From assembly GCA_965218695.1 (NCBI GenBank), contig OZ244651.1:2272001-2336000 (forward strand): a stretch of 64,000 nucleotides of DNA, read 5' to 3'. The notes under the pieces are model-generated. The model saw only the letters and a list, made by a program, of their open reading frames with translations, had not been told where the DNA came from and made no database searches. Numbering within the stretch: position 1 is the stretch's first letter; every line of letters begins with the position of its first letter. The DNA is from Nitrosopumilus sp. (GTDB lineage: Archaea > Thermoproteota > Nitrososphaeria > Nitrososphaerales > Nitrosopumilaceae). Of the stretch, positions 43,657 through 52,547 are shown in pieces. The translations under genes were made by a program, and so were the position numbers.

Positions 43657-45015
43657 TTATAGGGAATTATATACAAAAGTAGGCCAGCCGCCGATTGATG
43701 GCGGCAGCCTACACATGTTTCTTTCTGAAGGCAGTGAAACCCTTTGATTGGCTCTCTCATTCACGGCGATTTCCCGCATACATGCGCGGGGCGCCGCGTG
43801 TTTCTTCCTCCTAACGACGACCTTCCCGGCCGCCTCCGCACAACGTGCGGCTATGTTGACAGACGCATTCTTGTCTGCGTGGTCTTCATGCCCACACTTT
43901 ACGCAGACAAACACCGACTGCGAGCGCCTGGAATTCCTGTCCGTGTTGTGGCATTCGGCGCACGTGATGCTGGTGTTGTGCGGCCTTACCCTGCAGAATT
44001 CCTTGTTGTGTTTTTCTGAAAACCATTCAATGTACGATAATACCTCGCCTATCGCGGCGTGCTTTATGACGCGGTTCAACCCGGTCTTGCCCCGGCCTTT
44101 CCTGGCCATCTGTTTTGGGTGGAGATCCTCGACTGCCATGGTTTTGGCGCCTGTAAGTTCATTCTTGACGCTCTTTTTCATGAAATCAGTCCGGCGGTTC
44201 CTGATCTTTTCGACGGCTTTTGCAATCCGTCTCCGCTCCTTCTTCCACGAATTGCCGCCTTTTTTGCGCCCGGACTGCGCGGACTTTCTCTTGTCTATGT
44301 CGTCTTTCTTGTACCGTCTGGCATTTTCAGGCAGCGTGGCAAGCACGGTGGTGTTTTTGTCCAGGTTGTGGATTGCCATCATGTTGACTGCGCCGACGTC
44401 GATCCCGACGAGGTTGCCATCGCGGCGTTCGGGTTTGGCCACATGCACCTGGACGTGCAGCTCGTACGTGCGGTCACATGGCTTGGTATCTTTGGTGATT
44501 TTTTTGGTGGTTTCTATTATTTGGAAAGATTTGATTTGGTCGCGTTCTATCGGGGTGCTTTTGGGCACGATGTTGCAGATGCCGCCGATATTCCAGGAGC
44601 CGTCTGCGCGGCCTGCCGGATGCCCGTAGCACCCGATTGCCGGCAGTCGACGTTTGGCATTATTGCTCTTCTTCCTGAACAGGCTGTCCGGGGACGTGTA
44701 TTTGCGCTTGTGTTTTGGCATCCGGCGCTTGGCGGCGTTGGATTCCAGGAATAGTTTGACTGCCTTTCGGCCGCAATCCATGGCATGTCTGTGAACATTC
44801 ACGTTGGCATCCAGCCAGCCGTGTTCTGCCCGCTTCTTTGTGAGTGTGCTGTACAGGCCGAACCTTCCCGGATTGTCCTCCAGCACCTGCCTGACGCCCT
44901 CGTTGTAACACCAGTCTGCCTGCGGCCGCGTCTCCCAAATCAGGCGGGAAATCTCCCGTGACTGGTAAAATGGAATCGTGAATGTCTGCGTCGTGTATGG
45001 GAGGTTTTGTTTCAT
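43657..45015 (-). CDS. tnpB: TnpB RNA-guided endonuclease
   Basis: RuvC-I GIDVG, RuvC-II AVEDL, Zn finger CAEC...CVKC, RuvC-III HADKNASVNI all intact; ORF reads through the element end. Confidence 0.92.
   Translation of the reverse strand: MKQNLPYTTQTFTIPFYQSREISRLIWETRPQADWCYNEGVRQVLEDNPGRFGLYSTLTKKRAEHGWLDANVNVHRHAMDCGRKAVKLFLESNAAKRRMPKHKRKYTSPDSLFRKKSNNAKRRLPAIGCYGHPAGRADGSWNIGGICNIVPKSTPIERDQIKSFQIIETTKKITKDTKPCDRTYELHVQVHVAKPERRDGNLVGIDVGAVNMMAIHNLDKNTTVLATLPENARRYKKDDIDKRKSAQSGRKKGGNSWKKERRRIAKAVEKIRNRRTDFMKKSVKNELTGAKTMAVEDLHPKQMARKGRGKTGLNRVIKHAAIGEVLSYIEWFSEKHNKEFCRVRPHNTSITCAECHNTDRNSRRSQSVFVCVKCGHEDHADKNASVNIAARCAEAAGKVVVRRKKHAAPRACMREIAVNERANQRVSLPSERNMCRLPPSIGGWPTFVYNSL
43683..43850 (-). 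ncRNA. Putative omega/reRNA scaffold overlapping the tnpB 3' end
   Basis: Position inferred from known TnpB biology; terminal hairpin visible; 5' boundary approximate. Confidence 0.5.
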
Positions 45016-45058
45016 CAGGTATGGTATTGTACGGTACCGTGCGTTAAAAGGGTATCAG
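43683..45058 (-). mobile_element. tnpB-only element (IS200/605 or IS607 derivative) inside the left TIR of the IS5
   Basis: Removing it restores the TIR; AG/CT dinucleotide at both junctions; right-end hairpin GCCGCC-ATCAATC-GGCGGC; no tnpA. Confidence 0.82.
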
Positions 45059-45258
45059 ATGTCTTAGTTAGTTGCACAACTATGTCCAGATACGAGGCAG
45101 TTCGGCAGCAGTCACGTTCGGAATCATCCGGACTGTCTGCCGGATGCTCCAAGGATCGCCATTACACGTACCGTGCTGCCTGGCATCTCTTGGATCAATT
45201 GTGATCAGCTAAAAGATCAATTGTATTTGTTCTATATGCACAAAGATCAGTACATGCT

Positions 45259-46323
45259 GTGCGTGTGATAATGGGCAAGATGGATGCTGCAAAACCCGCC
45301 AAGCAGAAATCACGGCTACACATCACGCATGCGCAAAACGACGCAAGGTATGTGGACCGTGGAATGACGCTGTACCTCTGCGCTGATCCGGACTGGATCA
45401 ACGAGGTTGCGAGGATGAACCACAAGAAGAACGGCCGTCCGTTCGAATATGCCGAGGGCCTGTTTGAGCTGCTGGCAGGAATAAAAGCAGCATGCGGAAT
45501 TTCCTATCGCGCATGCGAGGGACTGGCAATAAAGGCACTGGAACGCGGCAACGCGCCTGACTACACCACGATATACAGGAGAATCAACGCCCTCAAAGTG
45601 GAGGATGACGGCAGCATGGTCATGGTCCACGGCAGGAAGGGGGCCCTGTGCCTGATTCCAGACGGCACCGGACTGTCGCCTACCAAGCGCAGCGAGTGGA
45701 TACGCAAAACGCACAAGGTAAAGCACGGCTTTATCAGGCTGGGAATAATGATAGACCAGGACACGCGCGAGATTCTGGCATTTAGCATTACAGACGAGCA
45801 CACCGGAGACTCTCCGCAGTTTGAGGGACTGCTTGAGGGTTCCCTGGAGAAGATTGGCATCGGAGGCACGGAATCGGAAGGGCAGGATGCGGCGGCCAGG
45901 AATCCGGACATAACGGTAAAGGCAGACGGCGGATACGACTCCCGCAAGATCTTTTCGTACTGCAAAAAGCGCGGCGTAGAGCCCCTCATACGGATACGCG
46001 GCAACTCCAACACGCGTTCGAACGGCGTGGACAGGTCCCGCACCAACGCCGTGCTGGATCAGCTTGGAGGCGGCATCACCGACCCCAAAAAGTTCGCGGC
46101 CCTGAACACGGGGAAGCGCGAGGAGAACAGGGAACAATGGAAGATTCGCGTAGGCTTTGGCAAGCGGTGGAATGTGGAGATTGTATTCTCGGCATTCAAG
46201 AGGATATTTGGTGATGCTGTTTGGGCTGCAAAGTGGAAGAACATAAAACAGGAAATCCGGATCAAGATTTGGCTGTACAACCGCATGCTGCGCGCATCAC
46301 AGGAGGCAATCGCAAGGACGTGA
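45259..46323 (+). CDS. IS5-family DDE transposase
   Basis: PDYTTIYRR, PDGTG, KADGGYD, RWNVEIVFSAFKR. Confidence 0.9.
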   Translation: MRVIMGKMDAAKPAKQKSRLHITHAQNDARYVDRGMTLYLCADPDWINEVARMNHKKNGRPFEYAEGLFELLAGIKAACGISYRACEGLAIKALERGNAPDYTTIYRRINALKVEDDGSMVMVHGRKGALCLIPDGTGLSPTKRSEWIRKTHKVKHGFIRLGIMIDQDTREILAFSITDEHTGDSPQFEGLLEGSLEKIGIGGTESEGQDAAARNPDITVKADGGYDSRKIFSYCKKRGVEPLIRIRGNSNTRSNGVDRSRTNAVLDQLGGGITDPKKFAALNTGKREENREQWKIRVGFGKRWNVEIVFSAFKRIFGDAVWAAKWKNIKQEIRIKIWLYNRMLRASQEAIART

Positions 46324-46793
46324 GGCAAGGATACGTCTTGGGCCATACTGTCTTGATCATGAAGGTGGAACTGTAGGGAGGTTGTGCAACTCCCATGTGT
46401 TACGGGTATCCAAACCCGTTGATGTCATGTGTTGGCAATGCGTCTGATCCAGTCCGATTTGGGTTGGTCGGGCTGTTTTTTAAAGATTTGTGGGCAGGTT
46501 CGACGTAAATCGGATATTTTGATCATTATTGCCCCCGATCCTGCAGAATCCGATGCAAATGTCATGGCTCGTGTGCAGGTACAGGCAGGCGTTGCGCGCG
46601 GATTTGGATGAATGGCACACAGCTACCGCTAGGAATCTCTCCGTATCCGGAGGAAAAGCAGGCCAAACTCCTACAGTCAATATCGTTTTCGGCAAGCCGG
46701 AGGGGGACAAGAGGGGGCGTTGAGCCGCCCCTCATCTGTGCAGGGGCGGCAAAACACACCCGGGGTTGTTTAATCTCCCCATGGCGCCCAGAC

Positions 46794-47861
46794 TCAGGAT
46801 TCGGCGATGCGCTTTATTCTCTGGAATTTTCGTCTGACAAAATCCCTGTCCTGGGTCCTGTACTCGGCGTCGTGTTCAAGCATCTCCCAGACCCATTCGA
46901 GCATCTGCCTGGCCACGGCAACCCTTGCCTTCATGGGCCCTATGCGGGCTGCCAGTCTCTGGTAGCGTGCCCCTATCCGGGCATCGTGCCGGACTGCGAC
47001 GAAGGCGGCCTCGACCATGGCGCGGCGCAGCCAGACAGAACCGCGCTTTGTGATGCCACCGGTCCTGACTGTCTCCCCGCTGTTGCGGTGTTTTGGCGCC
47101 AGGCCTGCATACGAGACCAGCTTTTCGGCGTTGGCGAACCTCTTGTGGTCGACTATTTCGGCAAGTATGGTTACTGCCGTGACGTATCCTATTCCGGGTA
47201 TGGTCATGATCAGTCGTGCCCGCCTGTCGCTCATCGCAATCCCGGCTATCTTTTTTTCAAATTTTGACACCTGCTTTAGTATGGTGTCGATGATGGCTAG
47301 GTGCGACTGCACCGCCATGCAGTCAACCTCCCTCAGGGGCACGTCCTGCAGCCACTCGATGCCCTGCTCCGTAAACAGCCCCCCTTTGGGCTGCTCGTGC
47401 GGGTATTTGGCCAGGATCGCGTGGATGCGGTTCTTGGGGCCTGAGGCGGACATCTTCATGCCCAGGCGGGTGCGGGTCAGTTCGCGCAGATCCCGCGCGG
47501 GCTTGTCGGCCACGAACGATTCGGGGATCATGTCCAGCCTGCACAGGTCTGCCAGCTTTTCCGAGTCGGCCTTGTCGTTTTTGTACACGGTTTCGGTTAT
47601 TATCTTCGTGTTGTGCGGGTGGGCCAGCAGGGTGTCGATGCCCGCATCCTCGAGCATGTCGTGCACGACTATCCAGTAGTTGGCCGTGGATTCGCAGACG
47701 GCCGTGGCCGGCACGTACCCTTCCTTGTGGATCATCTTGATGAATCCGGTTATTCCCCGAACGTTGTTGTCAAATTCAGTCTGCTTTAGTATGTCCTTGG
47801 TACTTCCCTTGATCGTTGTAACGCATTTCTTTTTGTGAACGTCTATTCCAACGTAATACGT
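46794..47861 (-). CDS. IS110-family DEDD (bridge) recombinase
   Basis: YVGIDVH, VCESTA, KNDKAD and RNSG catalytic Ser; SD-like GGAGGTGA followed by ACG; the ORF-track start (47945) lies inside IS481. Confidence 0.9.
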   Translation of the reverse strand, partial: TYYVGIDVHKKKCVTTIKGSTKDILKQTEFDNNVRGITGFIKMIHKEGYVPATAVCESTANYWIVVHDMLEDAGIDTLLAHPHNTKIITETVYKNDKADSEKLADLCRLDMIPESFVADKPARDLRELTRTRLGMKMSASGPKNRIHAILAKYPHEQPKGGLFTEQGIEWLQDVPLREVDCMAVQSHLAIIDTILKQVSKFEKKIAGIAMSDRRARLIMTIPGIGYVTAVTILAEIVDHKRFANAEKLVSYAGLAPKHRNSGETVRTGGITKRGSVWLRRAMVEAAFVAVRHDARIGARYQRLAARIGPMKARVAVARQMLEWVWEMLEHDAEYRTQDRDFVRRKFQRIKRIAES

Positions 47862-47882
47862 GTTATCACCTCCTTTGCAGTG

Positions 47883-49314
47883 TGTATAGTCCCGAAAGTT
47901 GTTCACCCCCCACATGAGGCTCCGGCCCGGGGTGGACATGCCCAATGAAGGACATTATCCGCGGCATGGCATCGCGTGCAAGATTACTGGGAAATGCAGT
48001 CAGCCTGTCCCTTACCAGAAACGACGGTGTGTGGGTTTCCCGTCGGTGGAGACGCTCGGCCGTGTGGCGTCATATAGGAAGACGGAGAGTGCGAGTGATG
48101 AAAAAGCTTGACCAGTCCAAAGTCGAATGGATCATACAAGAAAAGCGCAAGAATTCCCGCAACAAAGAGATTGCAGCAAGCATGGGAGTGTCGGTCCGCT
48201 GGGTCCAAAAGCTGTGGAAGAGGTACAGGGACAAGGATCGGATCGCGTATCCTGCTCCCATGGGCAGGCCCAAAAAGTGCGCGCCCGGGAGGCGGGATCA
48301 TTCGGCGGTTTTATCGGCTGCGTCCACTGCAGTCCACGGGGCAGCGTCCCTGGAGCGCATCATAAAGTCGCTTACAGGAATACATATCCCACACAACGTC
48401 CTGCACAGGATATTGAAGGATGCCGATTTTGCAGACACCCAGCCAAGGAAGAGCCAGCGCCGCAAGTGGATCCGCTACGAGCGCGAGCACTCCAACTCGA
48501 TGTGGCACACAGACTACAAACAGCTTGACGACGGCAGGTGGTTCCTGTGCTATGAAGACGACGCCTCGCGCTTCGTGACCGGATTTGGGGTATTTGAGGA
48601 GGCGACAACCGAAAACGCCCTGAAGGTGCTCGACGAGGCCATAAAAAATTACGGCAAGCCCGCATCGATCCTGACTGACCGCGGCGCCCAGTTCTATGCC
48701 ACGGAATCCGAGGTCAAGAAGAAGGGAGCCTCCAGGTTCGAGCAGAGGCTAGTCGAGCTTGGAATCAGGCACATACTGGCGCGCGTGCGGCACCCCCAAA
48801 CCAACGGCAAGCTGGAGCGCCTGCACGGGGAGATGCAGCGCAAGCTGCGCCGGTTCGAGGCGGCATCTTCTGCCAAGACCAGGCGCGGCGCCTCAGGGGA
48901 TTCCCACGTTGGAGGGCCGTTTTGCACCGCGCCAGCAAAGGATCCCGTGGAGCGGTTCATGGAGTGGTACAACCACGACCGGCCGCACATGTCCCTTGAC
49001 TGGGACAACCTCGAGACCCCGGCGCAGGCATTCGAAAGAAAGATGCCCCCTGCAGGAGAGATGGTAGTGGACGGCCAGACCGGTGAGGAATACCGCGCAG
49101 AATAGCTGTCCGGCACGACGTCACAACCGCGCCCCATCCTGGGGGATGTTGCGCACAATTTTTTGAAAGTCGCCATGCGTGGAGTGGAAATGACAAAAAT
49201 TCATGATTCCGGACGCAGGATCCAACACAAGACAATTATGCAACAGCCGGCAACATCAAACATGGAAGTACCTCCAAGTCTTGGAGGGGGGCGAACTACT
49301 TTCGGGATCCCACA
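47883..49314 (+). mobile_element. IS481-family element type B, copy 1 (1432 bp)
   Basis: TGT...ACA ends with imperfect TIRs; perfect 15-bp TSD ACCTCCTTTGCAGTG. Confidence 0.95.
48098..49105 (+). CDS. IS481-family transposase
   Basis: WHTDYK, TDRGAQF, HPQTNGKLER. Confidence 0.93.
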   Translation: MKKLDQSKVEWIIQEKRKNSRNKEIAASMGVSVRWVQKLWKRYRDKDRIAYPAPMGRPKKCAPGRRDHSAVLSAASTAVHGAASLERIIKSLTGIHIPHNVLHRILKDADFADTQPRKSQRRKWIRYEREHSNSMWHTDYKQLDDGRWFLCYEDDASRFVTGFGVFEEATTENALKVLDEAIKNYGKPASILTDRGAQFYATESEVKKKGASRFEQRLVELGIRHILARVRHPQTNGKLERLHGEMQRKLRRFEAASSAKTRRGASGDSHVGGPFCTAPAKDPVERFMEWYNHDRPHMSLDWDNLETPAQAFERKMPPAGEMVVDGQTGEEYRAE

Positions 49315-49330
49315 ACCTCCTTTGCAGTGT

Positions 49331-49455
49331 ATCGGACCCGACCAGCGGAAAACTCCCATTCACCGTCAAAGCGGTATTTGACCATCCGCATACCTTGAGT
49401 CACTCTAACTAACGCCCTCATACGTGGCAAGTTGCACTCGACTCTCAGGTCCAAC
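49331..49455 (-). ncRNA. Putative bridge RNA of the IS110 element
   Basis: 10-bp closing helix enclosing two stem/internal-loop/hairpin arms; loop sequences GTGCAACT, TTAGTTAG and ATGGGAG match the element junctions. Confidence 0.8.
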
Positions 49456-49536
49456 AGGGTAAATGCCATGATCGCCGCTATAACGGCAACACATGGCGTC
49501 TAACTAAGATGTCTACTTTTGTATATAATTCCCAGA

Positions 49537-49830
49537 TTATACGCCAAGGATCTTCTTGAGCATGGCCCGATAGTCCACGTCGCTCTTTCCGCTTCCCGCA
49601 GCGGGCAGCGCAAAGACCAGGGCGGATTTTTCCGTACGGAGCTCGGTCAGCTCGTCGCTGATCTTTTCTGTAATGTCGTCGCTGACCAGTACCAGCGCGA
49701 CGTCCGGGTCGTCAGTAAGCCTCCTGATCTCCCCGAGGGCAGTATCGGGGGTTTTGGTGATTACCCCGGGCACTCCTGCCAGCTGAAAACTGGTTACAAA
49801 CGACTTGCTGCCCACTGTCAGAACCCTCAC
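49537..49830 (-). CDS. atpF: A/V-type ATP synthase subunit F
   Basis: MRVLTVGSKSFVTSFQLAGV...MLKKILGV. Confidence 0.88.
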   Translation of the reverse strand: MRVLTVGSKSFVTSFQLAGVPGVITKTPDTALGEIRRLTDDPDVALVLVSDDITEKISDELTELRTEKSALVFALPAAGSGKSDVDYRAMLKKILGV

Positions 49831-50358
49831 GACTCCCACTCCTGTGCGTTCTAATTTAACCCTTTTTGGACTCGCGCCGACCCCGAAGGCTGCCATGCGC
49901 CTTCTCGTCCAGCCACGCGCCGGATGGAATCGCACCTTCTTGCGCGCACAGACTTTGGGTTCCAAGCGCGGCGGCTGCCGCCGGATCCGGCCTGCGGCTT
50001 AGTGCCAAGATGCAGGCAGCACGCAAAGATTGGTTAGGCCCCGTAGGACTGCATGCATCCGACGGTGCCGGCGGCGATCCGTCCAAAACCGCAAGGATCT
50101 GCCCCGCTGCCAGAAAAACCACGAGGGCCTGAATGCCGAACGAATCCCAAGGAGGAAGGGAATGCGGCGGGCATTCCTGCCGCGTATGATGAATCAGGGC
50201 AGTTGCCTCACCCGCAACAAAGGGATCGAATCCCACTTGCGAATTTCACGAGTTTCCCCGTTTTCGCTTTTGAAGCCTGACGGCCGTGCGGCAACCGAGG
50301 TCTGCCCGTAGATATAGGGACGGGGTGACTAATAGGTTTTTCATTCGGGAGGATGCGA

Positions 50359-51790
50359 TGTATAGTCCCGAAAGTTGTTCACCCCCCACATGAGGCTCCG
50401 GCCCGGGGTGGACATGCCCAATGAAGGACATTATCCGCGGCATGGCATCGCGTGCAAGATTACTGGGAAATGCAGTCAGCCTGTCCCTTACCAGAAACGA
50501 CGGTGTGTGGGTTTCCCGTCGGTGGAGACGCTCGGCCGTGTGGCGTCATATAGGAAGACGGAGAGTGCGAGTGATGAAAAAGCTTGACCAGTCCAAAGTC
50601 GAATGGATCATACAAGAAAAGCGCAAGAATTCCCGCAACAAAGAGATTGCAGCAAGCATGGGAGTGTCGGTCCGCTGGGTCCAAAAGCTGTGGAAGAGGT
50701 ACAGGGACAAGGATCGGATCGCGTATCCTGCTCCCATGGGCAGGCCCAAAAAGTGCGCGCCCGGGAGGCGGGATCATTCGGCGGTTTTATCGGCTGCGTC
50801 CACTGCAGTCCACGGGGCAGCGTCCCTGGAGCGCATCATAAAGTCGCTTACAGGAATACATATCCCACACAACGTCCTGCACAGGATATTGAAGGATGCC
50901 GATTTTGCAGACACCCAGCCAAGGAAGAGCCAGCGCCGCAAGTGGATCCGCTACGAGCGCGAGCACTCCAACTCGATGTGGCACACAGACTACAAACAGC
51001 TTGACGACGGCAGGTGGTTCCTGTGCTATGAAGACGACGCCTCGCGCTTCGTGACCGGATTTGGGGTATTTGAGGAGGCGACAACCGAAAACGCCCTGAA
51101 GGTGCTCGACGAGGCCATAAAAAATTACGGCAAGCCCGCATCGATCCTGACTGACCGCGGCGCCCAGTTCTATGCCACGGAATCCGAGGTCAAGAAGAAG
51201 GGAGCCTCCAGGTTCGAGCAGAGGCTAGTCGAGCTTGGAATCAGGCACATACTGGCGCGCGTGCGGCACCCCCAAACCAACGGCAAGCTGGAGCGCCTGC
51301 ACGGGGAGATGCAGCGCAAGCTGCGCCGGTTCGAGGCGGCATCTTCTGCCAAGACCAGGCGCGGCGCCTCAGGGGATTCCCACGTTGGAGGGCCGTTTTG
51401 CACCGCGCCAGCAAAGGATCCCGTGGAGCGGTTCATGGAGTGGTACAACCACGACCGGCCGCACATGTCCCTTGACTGGGACAACCTCGAGACCCCGGCG
51501 CAGGCATTCGAAAGAAAGATGCCCCCTGCAGGAGAGATGGTAGTGGACGGCCAGACCGGTGAGGAATACCGCGCAGAATAGCTGTCCGGCACGACGTCAC
51601 AACCGCGCCCCATCCTGGGGGATGTTGCGCACAATTTTTTGAAAGTCGTCATGCGTGGAGTGGAAATGACAAAAATTCATGATTCCGGACGCAGGATCCA
51701 ACACAAGACAATTATGCAACAGCCGGCAACATCAAACATGGAAGTACCTCCAAGTCTTGGAGGGGGGCGAACTACTTTCGGGATCCCACA
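50359..51790 (+). mobile_element. IS481-family element type B, copy 2 (1432 bp)
   Basis: Same ends as copy 1; perfect 15-bp TSD TTCGGGAGGATGCGA. Confidence 0.95.
50574..51581 (+). CDS. IS481-family transposase
   Basis: Protein identical to copy 1. Confidence 0.93.
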   Translation: MKKLDQSKVEWIIQEKRKNSRNKEIAASMGVSVRWVQKLWKRYRDKDRIAYPAPMGRPKKCAPGRRDHSAVLSAASTAVHGAASLERIIKSLTGIHIPHNVLHRILKDADFADTQPRKSQRRKWIRYEREHSNSMWHTDYKQLDDGRWFLCYEDDASRFVTGFGVFEEATTENALKVLDEAIKNYGKPASILTDRGAQFYATESEVKKKGASRFEQRLVELGIRHILARVRHPQTNGKLERLHGEMQRKLRRFEAASSAKTRRGASGDSHVGGPFCTAPAKDPVERFMEWYNHDRPHMSLDWDNLETPAQAFERKMPPAGEMVVDGQTGEEYRAE

Positions 51791-51816
51791 TTCGGGAGGA
51801 TGCGAGTCTGGATCCA

Positions 51817-51888
51817 GCACCGCGTGGACACGGCACCGCGTGGACACGGCACCGCGTGGACACGGCACCGCGTGGACACGACACCGCG
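51817..51888. repeat. 16-bp tandem repeat GCACCGCGTGGACACG x4.5
   Basis: Directly visible; no spacers. Confidence 0.92.
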
Positions 51889-51977
51889 CAGGCTGCAAAA
51901 TCAGCCCCATGCCAGAATCAGGCCCGGACACATCCGCCATAGGAAAGGTTGATTTAACCAGAGGGATCAGCAACATC

Positions 51978-52283
51978 ATGACTGACATTGATGCCCAGAA
52001 GGACGTCTACCTCTTCCTGCACGGAAGGATGGACCTCAGGGAAAAGGCAGCAGCTGCCCTTGCCACAAAAGGCTTTGCCGCAGACAAGATAGTCATGGCA
52101 ATGCCAGACAAGGTCGGGAAGGTGGGCGACTACATGGCAATGCTGTGGATGCCGCCAAATCCGGATCATATCAAGATCCAGCAGATTACGGGAGTCATCG
52201 ACGTGGAGCCAGAAGGCATGATCGGCCTCTGGAAGGGCGTCTCAAAGGATGACATAGACCAGGTTCCCCTTGGGGCTAGCTAG
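51978..52283 (+). CDS. Hypothetical protein
   Basis: MTDIDAQKDVYLFLHGRMDLREKA...; the longer ORF-track N-terminus is IS/repeat read-through. Confidence 0.7.
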   Translation: MTDIDAQKDVYLFLHGRMDLREKAAAALATKGFAADKIVMAMPDKVGKVGDYMAMLWMPPNPDHIKIQQITGVIDVEPEGMIGLWKGVSKDDIDQVPLGAS

Positions 52284-52295
52284 CTAGCTAGCTGG

Positions 52296-52547
52296 CTAAC
52301 TGAATCCCGCACCAAACTCGTTTCCTTTTTCCAGCACGTTACCTGATTCGGTGCTCCTGAGCTTTCTGTACAGCAGCGTCTCATAGACCAGCTTCATTGC
52401 AGCCTCGTCATCAAGATTGCAGTCGCTCTTCACCTGGTTCCGGTACTTTGCAAGCACCGCAACGTCATGCTCGTCGGCAGAGACGTGGTCATGAACCATT
52501 AGGTTGGCAATCTTTTCTATCTCGGCATTCAACAGATCATCATCCAT
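52296..52547 (-). CDS. Hypothetical protein
   Basis: Coherent ORF ending FGAGFS. Confidence 0.65.
   Translation of the reverse strand: MDDDLLNAEIEKIANLMVHDHVSADEHDVAVLAKYRNQVKSDCNLDDEAAMKLVYETLLYRKLRSTESGNVLEKGNEFGAGFS

Follow-up and report, generated by a model that had tools for sequence, protein, structure and literature searches.

A likely bridge RNA encoded by an archaeal IS110/IS1111-family insertion sequence within the inverted repeat of an IS5-family element

Introduction

What is the function of a short noncoding structure, carried by an insertion sequence in a Nitrosopumilus genome, whose loops spell out the DNA site that the insertion sequence interrupts? The structure lies on the minus strand of a 64,000-nt stretch of this genome (the window), where a first-pass annotation had read it as an archaeal bridge RNA belonging to an element of the IS110 family. 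The annotation described an outer helix enclosing two arms; arm 1 loops equal to the left target plus core and to the complement of the core plus right target; an arm 2 3' loop equal to the reverse complement of CT-CCCAT; a fourth guide that matches the other element end only in ATGG; a CT core; and symmetric guides of 8+8 nt. It placed the target in the inverted repeat of an IS5-family element, pointed to a second, unused perfect target in the window, and regarded the layout, with an upstream RNA and subterminal repeats, as a hybrid.

The follow-up presented here leads us to a similar view. With a probability of roughly 0.88, the segment 49332-49454 (-) of an archaeal insertion sequence in the IS110/IS1111 family is its bridge (seek) RNA, which would work as proposed in the Discussion. 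The observations behind this reading are the anatomy of the locus, the covariation within the structure, and the covariation of guides with flanks in relatives.

Results

An IS110-family element nested in an IS5-family repeat

The features of the locus are collected in Table 1. On the minus strand, the gene for V-type ATPase subunit F is followed by the noncoding AACTA, the core AG, a 33-nt hairpin, the 123-nt structure, the Shine-Dalgarno-like GGAGGTGA, an IS481-like element, the recombinase open reading frame (ORF), and a right end of ~400 nt. This right end closes with ...AACACATGG-G-AG and gives way to TTGCAC, the remainder of the IS5 repeat. AACTA, which lies beyond the nested element at 49502-49506, forms the final 5 bp of the host IS5 element, whose 8-bp target duplication, AGATGTCT, is found at 45057-45064 and 49507-49514. 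The IS110-family element is thereby placed in the right inverted repeat of its host, and domain, profile and target-duplication evidence all uphold the annotated target as an IS5-family repeat. The two junctions read GTGCAACT followed directly by CCCAT (46384-46396) and ATGGCGT-CT-AACTAA (49493-49507), and the annotated core CT is present in both (46390-46391 and 49500-49501). Removing the element and one core restores the interrupted site, so that only the 2-bp core is duplicated, as in the IS110 family.

Table 1. Features of the nested locus (window coordinates)
Feature	Position	Strand	Remarks
Host IS5-family element	45065..46389	+	ORF 45259-46323
Unoccupied perfect target GTGCAA-CT-AACTA(A)	45064..45077	-	Left inverted repeat of the same IS5 element
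IS110/IS1111-family element	46390..49501	-	Includes both CT/AG core copies; 3112 bp here, natively 1665 bp
Right subterminal inverted repeat AACACATGG	46393..46401	-	9 bp
Conserved A/T-rich box TTTAAAAAA	46476..46484	-	Faces outward, ~85-95 nt inside right end
Recombinase ORF	46794..47861	-	355 aa from ACG at 47861-47859; domain and profile matches
IS481-like element	47883..49314	+	1432 bp; rve integrase ORF 47945-49105
Bridge RNA core (putative): closing helix, target-binding arm, donor-binding arm	49332..49454	-	Fold, covariance model
Outer (closing) helix	TTGGACCTGA 49454-49445 / TCGGGTCCGA 49341-49332	-	
Arm 1 stem	GAGTC 49444-49440 / GACTC 49401-49397	-	
Arm 1 5' loop GTGCAACT	49430..49437	-	Left target + CT core on window + strand; effective guide TGCAA+CT
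Arm 1 3' loop TTAGTTAG+AG	49403..49412	-	Right-target guide (effective TAGTT+AG), then 2-nt handshake
Arm 2 stem	GCGGA 49389-49385 / TCCGC 49349-49345	-	
Arm 2 5' loop (A)TGGTCAAA	49377..49385	-	Short left-donor guide; 4/6 vs ATGGCG of element end; no core complement
Arm 2 3' loop ATGGGAG+TT	49351..49359	-	Right-donor guide + 2-nt handshake; ATGGGAG = 49359-49353
Hairpin in left end, upstream of bridge RNA	49465..49497	-	Includes CCATGTGTT; conserved TTATAG loop 49483-49478
Left subterminal repeat CCATGTGTT	49496-49488	-	Perfect 9-bp pair with AACACATGG

The window copy exceeds its native length because of a nested insertion: the IS481-like element splits it between the bridge RNA and the recombinase ORF and is flanked by a 15-bp target duplication, CACTGCAAAGGAGGT (49329-49315 and 47882-47868). 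Contigs assembled from sequencing runs have loose ends at the boundaries of this insertion (47882/47883 and 49314/49315). Its ORF carries an rve domain and scored 180.7 bits with the IS481 model, under the 224-bit cut-off, and a second IS481-like ORF copy is located at 50421-51581, ~1 kb further along the window. Adjoining the IS5 element is an ORF for a TnpB-family RNA-guided endonuclease (43657-45015, minus strand; NF040570, 139 bits against a cut-off of 100).

The recombinase ORF contains the domains PF01548 and PF02371 (E-values, 2e-18 and 2e-28) and scored 240.2 bits with NF033542, "IS110 family RNA-guided transposase" (cut-off, 140). Archaeal Rfam models were the best in their clan for the SSU and LSU rRNA of the genome, and together these matches agree with the annotated assignment to an IS110-family element in an archaeon. 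We take S241 to be the catalytic serine of IS621. In the alignment with that protein (8wt6; 70 bits), NSG of the ORF fell on the ESG serine motif and GIDVHK on GIDTAK; pairwise scores were 25.8 bits for ISEc21 and 77-86 bits for plasmid-borne enterobacterial copies. A tblastn search of plasmids returned 2743 records, all with <60% identity, the best being Rhodococcus, rhizobial and haloarchaeal copies at 33-37% identity, and their annotation names do not distinguish IS110 from IS1111. The ORF has ACG (47859-47861, minus strand), 4 nt after GGAGGTGA, where relatives have ATG or TTG. The same ACG is found in all three full copies of the genome (the others being L002 and L003, the copies cp2 and cp3 below), including one that differs by 14%, and it may be a weak non-canonical start.

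Structure of the RNA and its covariation

Every helix and loop named in the first-pass annotation was found, and the minimum free energy (MFE) fold of 125 nt gives the same two-arm architecture (-42.7 kcal/mol; z, -2.15; 5 of 200 shuffles were equally stable). With the context widened to 196 nt, the closing helix has other partners in the MFE fold, and the full architecture therefore rests on covariation and not on one fold. A covariance model (R1) built from 14 sequences and our own structure yielded 34 hits in 33 sources, that is, 34 copies from 16 genomes of one archaeal family, with one hit per element and always upstream of the ORF; its match in the window spans 49322-49457. Across these hits (31 distinct rows), and in an alignment that favors our structure by having been fitted to it, 88.2% of cells were paired and 19 of 29 base pairs showed compensatory changes on both sides, with the closing helix as the weakest helix (74.7% of cells). 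None of 500 shuffles reached the observed pairing or covariation values, and slid controls were 32-45% paired; because the sequences are related, the shuffle controls overstate the significance. Folding and covariation had been proposed in the annotation as the check on its reading, and both the compensatory pairs and the variation of the loops with the flanks (below) speak in its favor.

The closing-helix G-U pairs are compatible with the minus strand alone. An RNA from the plus strand was rejected: it would turn two closing-helix G-U pairs into A-C, and its loop/strand geometry would agree with the known model in neither orientation. In four copies (L023, L024, L029 and L030, from genomes G065 and G145), an extra G+C-rich hairpin of ~36 nt sits apically on the target-binding arm, with the guide loops and stems kept. 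No Rfam match was obtained in window positions 44000-52500 at E-values up to 1; bridge RNAs seem to be without an Rfam family.

The RNA type has a narrow distribution. Of 200 other genomes in the family, 15 gave matches in a DNA search. In a phylum sample of 151 genomes, the model matched 4, including the window's own, all of this one family: it matched 3 of the 19 family members sampled and none of the 131 genomes from other families.

Guides and flanks of the target-binding arm

Both halves of the interrupted site are spelled by the arm 1 loops, and the junction sequences confirm this part of the annotation; TTAGTTAG itself occupies 49412-49405 within the 3' loop. A search of the window for GTGCAACTAACTAA, with up to 2 mismatches allowed, found one further site, at 45064-45077 (-), against a chance expectation of 0.20, which is the unused perfect target already annotated. 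The eighth matching base (A, 49507) does not belong to the repeat; the IS5 target duplication starts with it, and the sister copy has a C there.

Among the 34 copies from one archaeal family, the arm 1 loops are hypervariable and the arm 2 loops are conserved. The first 8 nt of the 3' target loop matched the copy's own upstream 110 nt at at least 7/8 positions in 22 of 34 hits. The match preceded the RNA by 39-47 nt in every case, a distance that places it at the element boundary. Among non-cognate loop/flank pairs, 44 of 1102 (4%) reached this level and none matched at 8/8. In the 24 distinct elements with a defined boundary, whose preselection at a match of at least 6/8 inflates the per-position identities, flank identity was 0.92-1.0 at positions -5 to -1 versus 0.22-0.41 in non-cognate pairs. 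Position -6 stood at 0.25, the chance level; since the match covers -5 to -1, the right-target guide comprises 5+2 nt. The symmetric 8+8-nt guides of the annotation were thus not upheld: the relatives give 5+2 nt on each side, with position six at chance. Chance as the origin of the loop/flank matches is ruled out by the position-specific matches in relatives.

For the left-target side, 22 loci were extended, 15 of which had a 3' end marked by their own right-donor 7-mer, and 14 of these were distinct; the count leaves out L042, L044, L047 and L049-L052 (7 of 22, 3' end unrecognizable) and L040, a duplicate of L039. The 5' target loop matched the other flank at at least 4/6 positions in 6 of 14 elements versus 11 of 182 non-cognate pairs, and it matched contiguously from the core over at least 4 nt (4-6) in 5 of 14 versus 2 of 182. 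Agreement on this side is at the chance level in 8 of 14 elements, including the 86%-identical sister cp3, which weighs against the bridge RNA reading. In the closest foreign copy (L006/L033, genome G006), the 5' loop matches the flank over 7 nt in a register shifted by one base (core CC), and the 3' loop matches its flank at 5/8 positions only.

Donor-binding arm and handshake bases

The sequence confirms that ATGGGAG in the arm 2 3' loop is the reverse complement of CT-CCCAT, the far end of the element at 46390-46396. Donor covariation was seen in L037, where the loop variant ATGGAAG is accompanied by an ATGGAAG element end. The annotated fourth guide does match the other end in ATGG only, which in the register of the relatives amounts to 4/6; this imperfect match and the missing core complement of the window copy's left-donor guide weigh against the bridge RNA reading. 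Among the relatives, the left-donor 6-mer, one base from the core, matched at at least 5/6 positions in 12 of 24 own pairs versus 46 of 518 non-cognate pairs. The base that follows AG in the arm 1 3' loop is the first base of the element in 24 of 24 elements, and the second base after AG is its second base in 18 of 24 (classes AC, AT, AA and CC); at the corresponding position of arm 2, TT is complementary to the AA of the left target. In these sequence comparisons, the core complement is followed by two bases that behave as handshake guides would.

Sister copies and reprogrammed targets

Bridge RNA sequences occur at five places in the genome: the window copy (cp1), cp2, cp3 and two fragments (cp4 and cp5). 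Copy cp2 (G000:C1:443548-445212) is intact, at 1665 bp, with an open 372-codon frame, and is 100% identical to the window element (99.8-100% in the cp1/cp2 comparison); in the intact copy the bridge RNA ends ~30 nt before the Shine-Dalgarno-like sequence. Copy cp3 (L003; G000:C1:1720105-1721763) is 86% identical, and the fragment cp4 (L004) is at 747545-747698. Copy cp2 sits at the same position of a 183-bp IS5 remnant that is only 94% identical to the IS5 sequence in the window. As the IS110 copies are identical in IS5 ends that are 94% alike, the window copy and cp2 are independent insertions. Spread of a composite IS5::IS110 element, or gene conversion, was rejected as the source of the identical copies, given the short length (only 183 bp) and the 94% identity of the IS5 remnant beside cp2.

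The loops of cp3 and cp4 spell ..CATA-AG-TTCGTG and TCAAA-A(G)-TTCTTG, sequences found in the terminal repeats of a multi-copy IS630-family element, with 15 exact genome copies of the cp4-type 13-mer and 3 of the cp3-type 14-mer. Judged by these matches, cp3 and cp4 carry guides that have been reprogrammed in nature toward another IS family. The 5' flank of cp3 fits at 7/8 positions, and its 3' flank does not match its 5' loop beyond the core, a mismatch that could reflect half-match insertion or later rearrangement. The ideal two-sided 14-mer for the cp3 loops was not found in the genome, even with 1 mismatch. A perfect two-sided ..ATCATA-AG-TTCGTG is present ~115 nt downstream of cp3 (G000:C1:1719976-1720104; L067), and a 107-bp unit that has a second copy at C1:538444-538549 lies between cp3 and this site.

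The genome also holds other material related to these elements. The IS110 transposase model has 18 matches, of which 12 exceed the cut-off, and about nine belong to a second group with no match to R1, so that the RNA of that group, if any, would be of another type; one second-group copy lies 1.8 kb from cp2. At G000:C1:1713435-1714213, an internally deleted IS5 element loses its right-end similarity exactly after GTGCAA-CT, the IS110 core, and the unrelated sequence that follows looks like the end of a tRNA gene. This deleted element may be a trace of target-site recombination. One contig joins the right end of the element (CAACTCCCAT onward, window 46387) to a different flank, and this single contig may represent another insertion site in the sampled population. 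Among the contigs of four runs, all of them fragmented repeat contigs, there was no circle junction, empty site or joint.

Candidate expression signals

All left ends carry TTAT(A/C) in the loop of the left-end hairpin, ~25 nt before the closing helix, and by eye the hairpin stems covary. Candidate roles for this hairpin are a 5' stem-loop belonging to the RNA and a TATA-like box. In each of 14 right ends, an A/T-rich box in G+C-rich surroundings was recognized by eye ~80-95 nt from the end, and this candidate for an archaeal TATA box would read across the circle junction. Either this box or the left-end TTAT(A/C) could serve as the archaeal TATA box. A search of RNA sequencing runs for window positions 49300-50300 found none that contains the sequence, which counts against the bridge RNA reading.

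Comparison with known IS110 and IS1111 systems

In IS621, as the accessible text of PMC11208160 describes it, the top strand is the sense strand of RNA and ORF and the core is CT. The present element resembles IS621 in a recombinase that is probably of the DEDD and Ser type, in an RNA upstream of the ORF, and in the pairing of a variable target-binding internal loop with a conserved donor-binding one. Read along the RNA, the 5' loop has the sequence of the left half with CT, and the 3' loop is complementary to CT with the right half; the guides overlap at the CT core, and handshake bases, described for IS621 in the accessible part of PMC11208158, would follow the core complement. The element differs from IS621 in that its CT-top strand is antisense to RNA and ORF, which reverses the guide order relative to the ORF. 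Its subterminal repeat measures 9 bp instead of 2-3 bp, and its target guides measure 5+2/5+2 nt, whereas the accessible text of PMC11208160 gives a nine-base left and a four-base right target guide. Here the two arms are joined by a closing helix, the short left-donor guide lacks a core complement, the host is an archaeon, in which any promoter must be of archaeal type, and the protein similarity is only 70 bits.

The element shares some features with each of the two groups. Its long upstream noncoding region with the RNA is a feature of the IS110 group and not of the IS1111 group, in which the RNA lies downstream. Subterminal repeats are absent or 2-3 bp long in the IS110 group, and the perfect 9-bp pair CCATGTGTT/AACACATGG falls instead in the 7-17 bp range that the accessible text of PMC11208160 gives for IS1111 elements, below the usual 11-13 bp of PMC11187229. 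Under the guide-order rule that can be drawn from the accessible portions of PMC11187229 and PMC11208160, IS110-group guides, in ORF orientation, place the bottom-strand match 5' of the top-strand complement. Here the order is the opposite, the 5' loop complementing the ORF-sense strand AGTTGCAC and the 3' loop equaling the ORF-sense strand; with respect to the ORF, the guides thus stand in the IS1111 order, opposite to that of IS621 and ISEc21, a point that the annotation overlooked. A two-loop RNA complementary to both strands, as in the IS110 family at large, is present, with the left-target side agreeing in 6 of 14 relatives only.

The likeness to the seekRNAs of the IS1111 elements ISEc11, ISKpn4 and ISPa11, as far as PMC11187229 is accessible, lies in subterminal inverted repeats, in target matches that overlap, in a top-strand complement (ORF orientation) that precedes the bottom-strand match, and in natural reprogramming between relatives. 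In contrast to those elements, the RNA is upstream instead of downstream and the right end is also long (~400 nt); no second RNA was found in that right end by the covariance model. The 9-bp repeat is shorter than the usual 11-13 bp, and the terminal extensions are unlike the 7 and 3 bp reported in the accessible text of PMC11187229. The same text mentions ISMtsp17 of the IS1111 cluster with an upstream noncoding region (NCR) and ISHvo10 and ISAcp5 with long NCRs on both sides. Compared by description, the likeness to these three is a long upstream noncoding region in an IS1111-like element. ISHvo10, to go by its name, presumably has a haloarchaeal host. The RNA, guides and targets of the three, which are described for our element, do not appear in the accessible text of PMC11187229. 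The hybrid layout of the annotation accordingly stands as an upstream RNA combined with a 9-bp subterminal repeat, but with these exceptions in print it is not unprecedented. A known IS110-family element has the inverted repeat of another transposon as its target and is alike by description; the victims here are archaeal IS5- and IS630-family elements.

Discussion

The bridge RNA reading can be put as follows. The RNA would form a three-way junction of closing helix, target-binding arm and donor-binding arm. In the target-binding arm, the 5' loop UGCAA-CU, which equals the left half-site plus core, would pair with the bottom strand, and the two loops would jointly specify the 12-bp TGCAA-CT-AACTA at the tip of the IS5-family inverted repeat. 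In the donor-binding arm, the 3' loop AUGGG-AG would pair with the core and the right donor end, and the short 5' loop would pair imperfectly with the left donor end. Once strands have been exchanged, the two bases that follow each AG would serve as handshake guides for the non-cognate DNA, and the putative DEDD/Ser recombinase encoded downstream would join the excised circle (junction ...ATGGG-AG-ACGCC...) to the target at the CT core. Transcription, binding by the recombinase, circle formation and catalysis we infer, and programmability is suggested by the natural covariation of guides with targets. Because the IS481-like insertion cuts the recombinase gene off from the RNA, the window copy could act only with protein from the intact sister copy. 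This split, the ACG at the position of the start codon, and the weak closing helix with its other pairing in the longer fold also weigh against the reading.

It is possible, if rather unlikely, that the RNA is a bridge RNA in which target choice depends mainly on one half-guide, the 3' loop with its handshake, and the 5' loop is dispensable or used only occasionally in what has been called half-match. The right-target side matches in 22 of 34 copies and the left-target side in 6 of 14, cp3 fits at 7/8 on one side and in the core only on the other with a perfect two-sided site ~115 nt downstream, and a 2026 preprint, in its accessible part, treats half-match recombination. However, where left matches exist they run without a break from the core over 4-6 nt (5 of 14 elements versus 2 of 182 non-cognate pairs), the two target loops are equally hypervariable, and the 5' loops of the sister copies match IS630 ends perfectly; a dispensable loop is improbable because it would not track targets. 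Some of the mismatched 3' flanks may also be later rearrangements or misplaced ends. We consider it equally doubtful that the window copy, and perhaps every copy in the genome, is an inactive relic whose RNA gene is intact but disused. Such a history would suit the IS481-like insertion between RNA and ORF, the ACG in place of a start codon in all three full copies, the fragments cp4 and cp5, and the perfect target that persists unused 1.3 kb away. Against it, the 99.8-100% identity of cp1 and cp2 within IS5 ends 94% alike points to recent transposition, cp2 is intact with its open 372-codon frame, and an ACG common to copies 14% apart is no recent lesion.

Far less probable than either is a cis-acting leader, or a region bound by the recombinase at the DNA level, with the loop/flank identity explained as captured junction sequence. 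The structure does have a 5' untranslated position directly before the Shine-Dalgarno-like GGAGGTGA, but its loops change with the flanks over >20 insertion sites and its stems keep pairing through compensatory changes, and the loops cover both strands of the target with an overlap at the core, a feature shared with IS621 and the IS1111 seekRNAs (accessible text of PMC11208160 and PMC11187229). The bridge RNA reading may also be extended, speculatively and with little confidence, to the whole archaeal clade as a specialized hyperparasite of other insertion sequences. Its RNAs would have been naturally reprogrammed to IS5 and IS630 repeats and would act mainly through the 3' half-guide and handshake at half-matched sites, and a complete archaeal promoter in the right end would fire outward; in the integrated state it would read into the victim, and only once a circle has formed would it read into the bridge RNA.

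A count of 662 archaeal IS110 recombinases, with several horizontal transfers inferred, has been reported (10.1101/2024.06.21.599552), and archaeal IS110 recombinases and mixed layouts are already in print. Among the literature matches listed, no title or start of an abstract described an archaeal bridge RNA; supplementary files may hold predictions. The mechanism is already familiar from bacteria, and the locus provides a clear natural example of it: on the bridge RNA reading, the mechanism of IS110/IS1111 elements would be seen in an archaeon, itself unchanged. What the locus adds is a natural reprogramming series of >20 guide/flank pairs in one archaeal family, and three guide variants in one genome that would be aimed at IS5 and IS630 ends. 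It also makes testable the guide rules of an IS1111-like layout with an upstream RNA, namely guides of 5+2 nt, handshake bases and a weak left-donor guide, and it offers a candidate programmable recombinase native to archaea.
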